From Candidatus Baldrarchaeota archaeon (GTDB lineage: Archaea > Asgardarchaeota > Baldrarchaeia > Baldrarchaeales > DXJG01), in assembly GCA_019056805.1 (NCBI GenBank), contig DXJG01000002.1, forward strand, positions 253,103 through 285,102: a DNA stretch of 32,000 nucleotides. The letters are read 5' to 3'. This document shows, one piece after another, positions 11,367 to 12,971 of the stretch; the first letter of the stretch is position 1; each line of letters opens with the position of its first letter. Under the pieces are notes generated by a model. That model did not search any database. It worked only from the letters and a program-made list of their open reading frames with translations, and was not told where the DNA came from. The position numbers and the translations under genes were made by a program.

Positions 11367-12320
11367 TTAAACGTCTTCTATGCCTTGTTCTGTTATTCTA
11401 AAAACTACTTCGCTTTCGGGAAGGTAGGGACTGTCAACTAGTCTGGCTATTCTTCTTTCTTGTTTGCTTTTTCTTAAATATACTCTTGTTGTGCATGAGT
11501 GAGCAAGAATATGTCCACCTGTAGCCTCTGTGGGATCACCGAAGAAAACAGCGGGTCTAGCCATAACTTGGTTCGTTACAACAACAGCTACATTGAAAAC
11601 CTCAGCAATACGAAGCAAAGCATGTAAATGCTTATTTAACTTCTGTTGCCGCTCAGCAAGCATCCCCCTACCGCCATACTCAGCCCTAAAGTGACCCATA
11701 ACACTATCAACAATCAACAAACCAATATTCATCTCAGGAATCAAATCCTTAGCCTTCTCAACAAGCAACATCTGATGATCACTATTATAGGCTCTAGCAG
11801 CTAAAACATTCCTTAAAACTTCTTTCGGATCCAAATTGAATCGCGGAGCCATCTGAACGATACGCTCAGGTCTAAAGGTGCCTTCCGTATCAATATAAAT
11901 AACTCCGCGATCCAAACCACCTTTATCTTCAGGCAATTGCACAGTTACACACAACTGATGGGCGATCTGAGTCTTTCCAGTCCTATATGCACCAAAAAAC
12001 TCAGTAATTCCACGGGTTTCGATTCCACCACCAAGAAGATCATCTAAACTCTTGCTACCCGTAGTAATTCTATGAATCTCCATCCTTTCAGCCCAAACTT
12101 CTTCTGCTGAAACAAAACCAATCCCAACAGCTTTCCTAGCTTCCTCAACAATTTTCGCCGCTACACCTTCGCCAATAGAAAGCGTAGCAGCTAATTCTCT
12201 AGGAGAAGCAACAGCAATTGCTTCAACACTACCAAAACCATTCTCAACCAGCTTCTTAGCTATTGCCGGTCCAACACCAGGCAAATCTTTAATATCCAAA
12301 ACTTTTTTAGTCCGAGCCAC
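11367..12320 (-). CDS. radA: DNA recombinase RadA (317 aa from GTG at 12320)
   Basis: N-terminal HhH DLPGVGPA, Walker [22 protein letters not shown], Walker B LLIVDS, TNQV. AGGAG upstream of the GTG. The ORF-track extension to 12503 overlaps the tRNA and is not real. Confidence 0.96.
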
Positions 12321-12450
12321 AAAACCACAACTCCTAACAATCACTAAAACAACCAAAAAGCAACTTAAAAACCTACCGAAAACTACGACAACACAATATA
12401 AAAAACTATCAAAACACCAATATTCAACAAATAAACCAAATAAAAAACAA

Positions 12451-12644
12451 TGGTCGGCCCGCCGGGATTTGAACCCGGGACCTCTACCGGAATCCAATGA
12501 CAAATTGGATCCTGGCGGTGTCTGCGATGTTCGAGCGGCGGCTAAAGTTAAGTAAACGCCTTGCTAGGCGTTTTCTACAGCTTCGGTCTCCAATTCCCAG
12601 AATGGGAACTGGAGTCGCCCGCTCTGCCACTGAGCTACGGGCCG
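12451..12644 (-). tRNA. tRNA-Tyr(GUA) with three introns and encoded CCA
   Basis: Exons 12644-12616, 12581-12575, 12519-12514 and 12483-12451 join to a 75-nt cloverleaf CGGCCCGUAGCUCAGUGGCAGAGCGGGCGGCUGUAGACCGCCAGGUCCCGGGUUCAAAUCCCGGCGGGCCGACCA. It has C1:G72 and A73 (archaeal Tyr identity) and loop CUGUAGA. Introns are 34, 55 and 30 nt with BHB-like junctions. Confidence 0.92.
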
Positions 12645-12669
12645 GGACTTTTTTAGATCTTGGGGATTG

Positions 12670-12675
12670 TTTTAA
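12670..12675 (-). promoter_or_regulatory. TATA box of tRNA-Tyr gene
   Basis: TTAAAA on the minus strand, 26-31 nt upstream of tRNA position 1. Confidence 0.55.
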
Positions 12676-12971
12676 CTATGTCATAGTGATAGTTTTCATC
12701 AGAATTTATATTTTTTGCGGTTTTTATCTTTGTTTTTTGTTTAGCTGGTTTTGGTTAGAGGTTAAAGTATGTTTTTTCAGCGATTGTGTCTATTGTATCA
12801 ATAATATTTTTCGGGAGTGTTCAATAATTCACCTATACAGCTACTCCACAACGATCCTTAAGCAGCAAAAAAGCCTTAGAAGTGTTCCTGTCTTTTGTTT
12901 TCATCCTTAGGTACTTTTGTTAGGGGGAGAGGAAGAATCGAAAAAGAATTAGAGGTAAAGGAAAGAGTTAG

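Follow-up and report, generated by a model that had tools for sequence, protein, structure and literature searches.

U35 of pre-tRNA-Tyr is a proven target of H/ACA RNAs in the Sulfolobales, and the H/ACA sRNAs responsible for its conversion to pseudouridine (Psi35) have been described from Sulfolobales and Aeropyrum (Sso1, Sto1, Sac1, Mse2, Ape7 and sR115; PMC2651775, PMC11077068). These are separate RNAs acting in trans, each with a lower stem, an upper stem and a K-turn of its own. In archaeal H/ACA RNAs the duplex between the target and the 3' guide stacks on helix H1, and Cbf5 binding calls for an ANA box, usually ACA, at a distance of 14-15 nt from the target (PMC2377435); contacts with Cbf5 are limited to the 3' side of the pocket, and the stack of duplex and H1 governs this spacing (PMC7075261). 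L7Ae has been reported to be essential for pocket formation (PMC2094053), and mutations of the sheared G-A pairs of trans guides abolish modification in vivo (PMC7075261); the latter report also states that an ACA box permits modification with a paired N. Atypical H/ACA RNAs from Pyrobaculum and Sulfolobus islandicus, which keep the K-turn and have neither lower stem nor ACA, demonstrate that guide activity survives the loss of one of the two protein anchors (PMC4652768, PMC11077068). Cbf5 also acts independently of a guide: at U55 of tRNA, at U2603/2607 of 23S rRNA and on atypical H/ACA RNAs it can, together with Nop10 and/or Gar1, modify a suitably folded RNA with no L7Ae or separate guide (PMC6138745, PMC2377435, PMC11077068), and Cbf5 with Gar1 modifies some self-folded RNAs in the same L7Ae-free and guide-free manner (PMC6138745). 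Among tRNA introns, that of euryarchaeal pre-tRNA-Trp encodes a C/D guide for its own tRNA, which directs 2'-O-methylation in trans through its C/D boxes and has been called the unique example of a self-guiding tRNA intron (PMC4090602).

The element examined in the present study, located in the second intron of a tRNA-Tyr gene from an Asgard archaeon of the Baldrarchaeota group, shares with the Sso1-type sRNAs the target U35, a 3' guide that pairs to the anticodon arm and an ACA at 14 nt, but differs from them in that the guide resides in the intron of its own substrate, the lower stem is supplied by exon sequence, and there is neither upper stem nor K-turn. In this make-up it is the mirror image of the atypical H/ACA RNAs, to which a K-loop-bearing sister form of the same intron comes closer than the kink-free form described here. 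It is intron-encoded like the Trp guide, but has no C/D box and is predicted to promote pseudouridylation within the precursor. Compared with the guide-independent substrates of Cbf5, the 23S substrate resembles a T-arm stem-loop, whereas the intron 2 precursor would mimic a whole guide-substrate complex, including the ACA box. The searchable literature, in which most subscription journals are not covered, holds no description of such an element and only trans-acting guides for Psi35, and a 2026 census of Asgard tRNA introns makes no mention of Tyr, a guide or pseudouridine.

A tRNA-Tyr gene with three introns

The tRNA-Tyr(GUA) gene, with three introns and an encoded CCA, lies on the reverse strand at 12451..12644 of the window, the 32,000-nucleotide stretch of DNA analysed as a whole. 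Rfam detects the unspliced gene weakly and ARAGORN missed it in the raw window; with the introns at 30/31, 37/38 and 43/44 taken out, ARAGORN identified the spliced form as tRNA-Tyr(GTA). Exon 1 (tRNA positions 1-30; 12616..12644) is followed by intron 1 at 30/31 (34 nt; 12582..12615), which consists of a hairpin, the helix strand ACCG and the bulge AA. The anticodon is in exon 2 (G31-G37; 12575..12581), where the predicted target U35 is nucleotide 12577 and A36 is 12576. Intron 2 at 37/38 (55 nt; 12520..12574) bears the element and precedes exon 3 (A38-C43; 12514..12519), intron 3 at 43/44 (30 nt; 12484..12513; a perfect helix-bulge-helix) and exon 4 (A44-A76; 12451..12483). A relaxed bulge-helix-bulge (BHB) splice motif is present in each of the three introns, and the genome encodes two splicing endonuclease genes.

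The same tRNA-Tyr gene was found in three congeners. Intron 1 splits the target of the guide and is confined to this genus among the genes read; its ends are conserved within the genus, while its hairpin core varies in a compensated fashion. Intron 3 is missing from one congener (G002) and kept in the other three genomes, indicating gain or loss within the genus. Intron 1 (12582-12615) starts with ACUCCAG, resembling a Trp anticodon loop. Alternative splicing to tRNA-Trp was rejected, as there is no matching 3' anticodon strand, the gene has a Tyr-type C1-G72 pair, and a near-identical metagenome copy (L355) has ACUUCAG in place of ACUCCAG.

The region upstream of the tRNA (12645-12720, reverse strand) is kept in the genus and contains an AT-rich, TATA-like box ~70 nt before the tRNA, a position that suggests a leader of ~40 nt. 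Directly downstream on the same strand is a gene (11367-12503) whose product, recognised by eye, we take to be a RadA-like recombinase; its listed TTG start falls within the tRNA and is spurious, and a 137-aa open reading frame spanning the tRNA on the forward strand (12497-12910) is probably spurious as well. Most tRNA genes of this genome contain one to three introns each, and ARAGORN recovered 18 tRNAs genome-wide, several with a wrong anticodon, compared with ~36 from a motif scan. One of these genes, tRNA-Lys(UUU) (G000:C9:551-662, forward strand, outside the window), has a 35-nt intron at 37/38 in which UAAAAGC, complementary to its own G31-A37, precedes a K-loop-like UGA-loop-AUGA-A motif that has a short stem; this intron might be a second self-guide, or a chance occurrence.

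Layout of the intron 2 element and its H/ACA counterparts

Intron 2 opens with a hairpin (12573-12554) that doubles as the outer helix at the 5' splice site, and the two bases following it sit opposite intron A1 and G37. Together with C12552, which faces G37, the hairpin (unit 12552..12573) may stand in for the 5'-guide duplex. The succeeding 7-nt linker (12545..12551), free in sequence and constant in length within the genus, occupies the place taken by the upper stem in introns of the K-loop type. It leads into a 12-nt antisense, UAGCCGCCGCUC (12533..12544), which is invariant in the four congeners while its flanks vary. The first six nucleotides of the antisense pair with G34-C29, equivalent to a 3'-guide duplex, and the last six with exon positions 27-22, mimicking a lower stem, so that the helix with exon 34-22 comprises 6+6 bp with one exon base bulged (one G of 26-28); the exon-1 segment concerned (12619..12624) shows covariation at 23, 26 and 27. 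The antisense and the ACA box (12528..12530) are separated by two bases (12531..12532) that vary in sequence and not in number, and a further two bases separate the ACA from the splice-helix strand GCAG, which pairs with C32-U35, and the 3' bulge AC (12520..12525); this last segment competes with the guide fold.

The initial annotation had noted the 28 extra nucleotides beyond the intron 2 hairpin with the antisense at 12544-12533, its pairing to tRNA positions 22-34 with one bulged G, and an ACA (12530-12528) exactly 14 nt from the base opposite G34, and all three features are upheld. The duplex of the antisense with exon 22-34 has a predicted energy of -22.7 kcal/mol; in 20,000 shuffles of each kind, the 28-nt insert reached this value 34 times with dinucleotide and 7 times with mononucleotide shuffling. 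No comparable antisense was found in 12 other canonical introns of this genome (best -13.0, next -8.3 kcal/mol), and Rfam contains no family for the element. Intron 2 conforms to the archaeal BHB type, C32-U35 and GCAG forming the 4-bp helix between 3-nt bulges (AG|A and AC|A) at the two splice sites, in a relaxed motif with a 28-nt loop-out. A nested intron was discarded, as inspection of the 28-nt insert by eye revealed no internal BHB in the registers examined. A box C/D guide, in which boxes C (RUGAUGA) and D (CUGA) would flank guides of 10-12 nt, was likewise discarded, given that intron 2 lacks a C or D box and any UGA triplet and has no Rfam C/D match.

Measured against archaeal H/ACA RNAs, the element has the ANA box within the 14-15 nt range (ACA at +14) and a 3' guide strand just 5' of the target U that covaries with the exon over its 6 bp with G34-C29. 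It has no lower stem of its own, the equivalent helix using exon 22-27 (or, in some relatives, the D-loop), and no upper stem with K-turn or K-loop, which the linker replaces; its make-up is the opposite of the ACA-less atypical RNAs, which have a K-turn hairpin without lower stem or ACA. The absence of a K-turn, pointed out in the initial annotation, is real, although the sister form indicates that it marks a subtype; for the second pocket strand, also pointed out as not evident, G37 opposite C12552 followed by the intron hairpin provides a candidate. Without upper stem, K-turn or its own lower stem the element falls outside formal H/ACA membership, and by its sequence features is best described as a probable mimic of a substrate-bound H/ACA guide.

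Cbf5, Nop10, Gar1 and L7Ae are all encoded in this genome, with an uninterrupted cbf5 gene and an intact GTLDP catalytic motif. A Cbf5-domain match was obtained in 30 of 30 genomes tested. The cbf5 frame around the N-terminal domain is only 70-120 aa long in 16 of these, including the Asgard genomes G015 and G020, as expected for the known cbf5 intron (PMC2738675). A loose pattern for a separate trans guide gave 91 matches in this genome, mostly in coding sequence.

Conservation, covariation and the K-loop sister form

Across the four congeners the antisense and the ACA are invariant, the linker, hairpin loop and neighbouring bases vary, and no tandem G-A motif occurs in intron 2 of any of them. 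A search based on exons only recovered 55 tRNA-Tyr genes from other Asgard families, comprising 24 with the kink-free layout, 30 with the K-loop sister layout and one with a short plain intron. A similar search in the phylum of record L092, taken as Thermoproteota, recovered 39 tRNA-Tyr genes: 10 kink-free, 18 with the sister layout, one unclear and 10 without the element. In a further sample the sister layout was seen in families f9, f30 and f15, and six f7 genes had no element. The kink-free element is conserved in a set of 39 tRNA-Tyr introns drawn from 10 Asgard families and the Thermoproteota, this set and the layout classes being assigned by eye. As some Asgard (family f7, G319) and Thermoproteota tRNA-Tyr genes have no element, the kink-free and K-loop elements are widespread and not universal.

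With the register of the 39 kink-free introns fixed from pairing alone, ACA was located at +14 in 33 introns and at +15 in two, the remaining four having GCA or AUA at +14. At other offsets between 9 and 20, ACA occurred only at +18, in two genes, and was absent from 9-13, 16, 17, 19 and 20. The background frequency of ACA was 10 in 1831 positions (0.55%). No P value is attached to these counts, since related genes are not independent observations and the introns were selected by eye. With ACA at +14 or +15 in 35 of 39 introns against the 0.55% background, the concern raised in the initial annotation, that ACA arises easily by chance, is answered. The two bases on either side of the ACA vary freely. 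A pattern with no ACA requirement retrieved three new introns from metagenomes, all with ACA at +14 (3/3).

The 14-nt spacing is reached from three different sequence sources. A free-standing ACA is present in 18 genes belonging to seven groups, this gene included, and in three of the 18 genes it overlaps the splice helix by one base; in another part of the 39-intron set the splice-helix strand ACAG contributes its first three bases as the ACA; and in four genes it is created at the splice junction AC|A38 and exists only in the unspliced precursor. The ACA as a by-product of the splice helix was rejected as sole cause, given the 18 genes in seven groups that keep the two apart. Retention of the ACA for pairing with a D-loop UG was likewise rejected, as genes whose D-loop has no UGG still possess the ACA and most folds leave it unpaired. 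Two genes of family f13 (L193 and L221), with an ACA made by the splice junction, contain a K-turn-like motif in reversed orientation in the hairpin after G37.

Compensatory changes between exon and intron were identified at position 23 (A-U to C-G), position 26 (G-C to A-U) and position 27 (G-C to C-G or U-A). Optimisation of the bulge gene by gene biases the pair table in favour of pairing; a register-free swap test avoids this bias, and in it 20 of 23 guides gave their own exon the top rank among nine variants. Eight Thermoproteota genes (L257, L258, L281, L282 and L285-L288) have an alternative arrangement in which five bases pair with 34-30 and the following ones with the D-loop, replacing the D-stem, and these genes retain ACA or GCA at 14-15. 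The comparison with related tRNA-Tyr introns that the initial annotation had proposed as a check of its reading supports it on each count, namely conservation across families, exon-intron covariation and a fixed ACA spacing. The comparisons indicate that the antisense-exon pairing is under selection, and that conservation attaches to a helix stack of constant height with ACA at its end, and not to a particular partner strand.

In the sister layout, based on K-loop calls made by eye, a G-U-closed stem with a UGA...AUGA K-loop replaces the linker just before the same guide. Both forms have the same intron position, the same YAG at the start of the guide, opposite G34-U33-C32, and the same gap at U35-A36, and in the sister form a C usually faces G37. 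In the K-loop form the upper stem bears the K-loop, the 3' duplex is short and ACA is mostly missing (present at 14-15 in 2 of 45 such introns), whereas in the kink-free form a linker, of 3-9 nt in most genes, leads into a 12-bp helix that extends to the D-arm and is followed by ACA at 14. Both features, or an ANA variant, occur in a few genes (L205, L208, L242, L279 and L284). Judged by these motifs the two forms are complementary, the K-loop form apparently keeping the L7Ae anchor and the kink-free form the Cbf5 anchor.

Precursor folding and candidate explanations

The initial annotation proposed that the antisense pairs with the exons only after removal of intron 1. Folding predictions agree for the upper half of the helix, where the probability of G34 pairing with the guide rises from 0.13 to 0.63 upon removal, and disagree for the lower half, which forms despite intron 1 (0.99 for A23 with the guide). 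The proposal that U35 and A36 are left unpaired agrees with most constrained folds of the 39 introns (U35 unpaired in 33, A36 in 34), except that A36 is predicted to be paired in the naked-RNA minimum fold of this genome (unpaired probability 0.14 at 37 °C and 0.31 at 65 °C); it is mostly free in the three congeners (0.73-0.96 at 37 °C, introns 1 and 3 removed). On the 3' side of the UN, where an H/ACA RNA pairs through its 5' guide strand, G37 is paired in only 18 of 39 constrained folds, the intron hairpin follows G37 in all 39 genes, and the intramolecular helix has a probability of >0.5 in 30 of 39 local folds. The guide fold and the splice fold are mutually exclusive, the guide fold of the last splicing intermediate being the more stable by 10.1 kcal/mol at 37 °C and by 5.3 kcal/mol at 65 °C.

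We consider it probable that the precursor is a self-presenting mimic of an H/ACA complex and that Psi35 is made before intron 2 is spliced, a refinement of the self-guiding, H/ACA-like intron suggested in the initial annotation, which draws its support from the comparison of related genes. Intron 1 would be spliced out first, allowing a continuous antisense-exon helix to form in which exon strand 22-27 serves as the 5' side of H1. Cbf5-Nop10-Gar1, probably without L7Ae, would then bind the stem and the ACA, and Cbf5 would isomerise U35 to pseudouridine in the precursor. The RNA would subsequently refold, C32-U35 pairing with GCAG, and intron 2 would be cut last. Tethering of the substrate may replace the K-turn, a view helped by the action of Cbf5-Gar1 on some self-folded RNAs without L7Ae or guide. 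Several points count against this reading, including the missing upper stem and K-turn, the pairing of G37 in only 18 of 39 folds, the predicted pairing of A36 in this genome, the presence of an aPus7 that probably offers a second route to Psi35, and the need for the precursor to escape from a guide fold whose stability exceeds that of the splice fold by 5-10 kcal/mol.

An alternative that we regard as unlikely is that the refolded precursor presents its anticodon loop to a stand-alone enzyme, such as aPus7/TruD or another anticodon-loop enzyme, with an ACA reader other than Cbf5. It would resemble the intron-dependent Psi35 of eukaryotes, and is consistent with U35 and A36 being free in 33 and 34 of the 39 constrained folds. 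In this genome aPus7 has near-intact motifs, keeping the basic motif-IIIa residue and the catalytic Asp (KDKQ; KDKR in congeners), and it is present in most Asgard carriers. The enzyme looks functional from these motifs, and a second route to Psi35 therefore probably exists in this genome. Motif II of aPus7 varies in carriers of both forms with no clear pattern among the proteins parsed, several having been left unparsed. Pyrococcus abyssi aPus7 makes Psi35 at UA dinucleotides, but it needs no intron to do so (PMC2651775). Against a stand-alone enzyme, the sister form bears a K-loop of the L7Ae type, and no TruD/Pus7 match was found in eight kink-free carriers, whose assemblies may be incomplete, all with Cbf5 present (G420, G436, G428, G461, G493, G413, G484 and G508, as well as G481); a lineage-wide loss of aPus7 in these carriers is possible. 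Furthermore, we know of no rule for Pus7 that involves an ACA at 14 nt.

Two further explanations appear somewhat less probable still. The first assigns the element no role in modification and sees in it a conformational switch, through which intron 2 would be spliced late or the introns would be removed in a set order; in its favour are the mutually exclusive folds, the preference for the guide fold (10.1 kcal/mol at 37 °C, 5.3 at 65 °C) and the interruption of the guide's target by intron 1. The element is, however, equally conserved in single-intron genes, it is missing from the 12 other canonical introns of this multi-intron genome, and a switch leaves unexplained both the ACA fixed at 14 nt and the K-loop sister form. 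The conformational checkpoint offered in the initial annotation is best taken as a consequence of the design: because the guide and splice folds exclude each other, the splicing order looks like an outcome of the predicted fold. The second, on a par with the switch, is an H/ACA-like guide acting in trans, where the excised (circular) intron or a precursor would serve as guide for a different tRNA-Tyr molecule. The pre-tRNA-Trp C/D intron is a precedent that acts in trans (PMC4090602), and the free-standing ACA of this genome would survive excision; yet an ACA that spans the 3' splice junction, as in four genes, is lost on excision, the lower stem needs exon sequence, and the intramolecular helix exceeds a probability of 0.5 in 30 of 39 local folds.

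That the kink-free form is a relic of a K-loop guide, retained purely for a structural role or as a site that binds Cbf5 with no catalysis at U35, is the least likely of these explanations, since it accounts for the missing K-turn that known archaeal guides need in vivo and for the Asgard (f7, G319) and Thermoproteota genes without any element, but not for the gain of a long lower stem and an ACA at 14, both mostly missing from the K-loop form, nor for compensatory changes and a second pairing solution, which are unlike decay.

Returning to the self-presenting precursor, the present analysis contributes the kink-free form with its ACA, the variant that uses the D-loop, the statistics of the ACA spacing and the carriers without Pus7. 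On balance we lean, with no great confidence, towards a widespread and so far undescribed class of pre-tRNAs that present themselves to Cbf5 in Asgard archaea and Thermoproteota, the tRNA-Tyr intron building a guide-substrate complex of the H/ACA kind in cis, anchored either by a K-loop or by an exon stem with ACA. The class would include an L7Ae-free and K-turn-free natural substrate of Cbf5, and the intron dependence of eukaryotic Psi35 may have originated from it. If true, it would be the pseudouridine counterpart of the Trp C/D intron and, throughout the Asgard archaea and in many Thermoproteota, would assign a function to the canonical intron of tRNA-Tyr. The occurrence of a K-loop without ACA in one form and of an ACA without K-loop in the other would constitute a natural experiment on the anchors that Cbf5 needs when its substrate is tethered. 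Eukaryotic H/ACA RNAs are not known to carry K-turns, and it is in eukaryotes that Psi35 formation in tRNA-Tyr depends on an intron. The latter dependence is documented (PMC2651775), and the kink-free Asgard form may, as a matter of speculation, bear on the origins of both the K-turn-less H/ACA RNAs and the intron-dependent Psi35 of eukaryotes.
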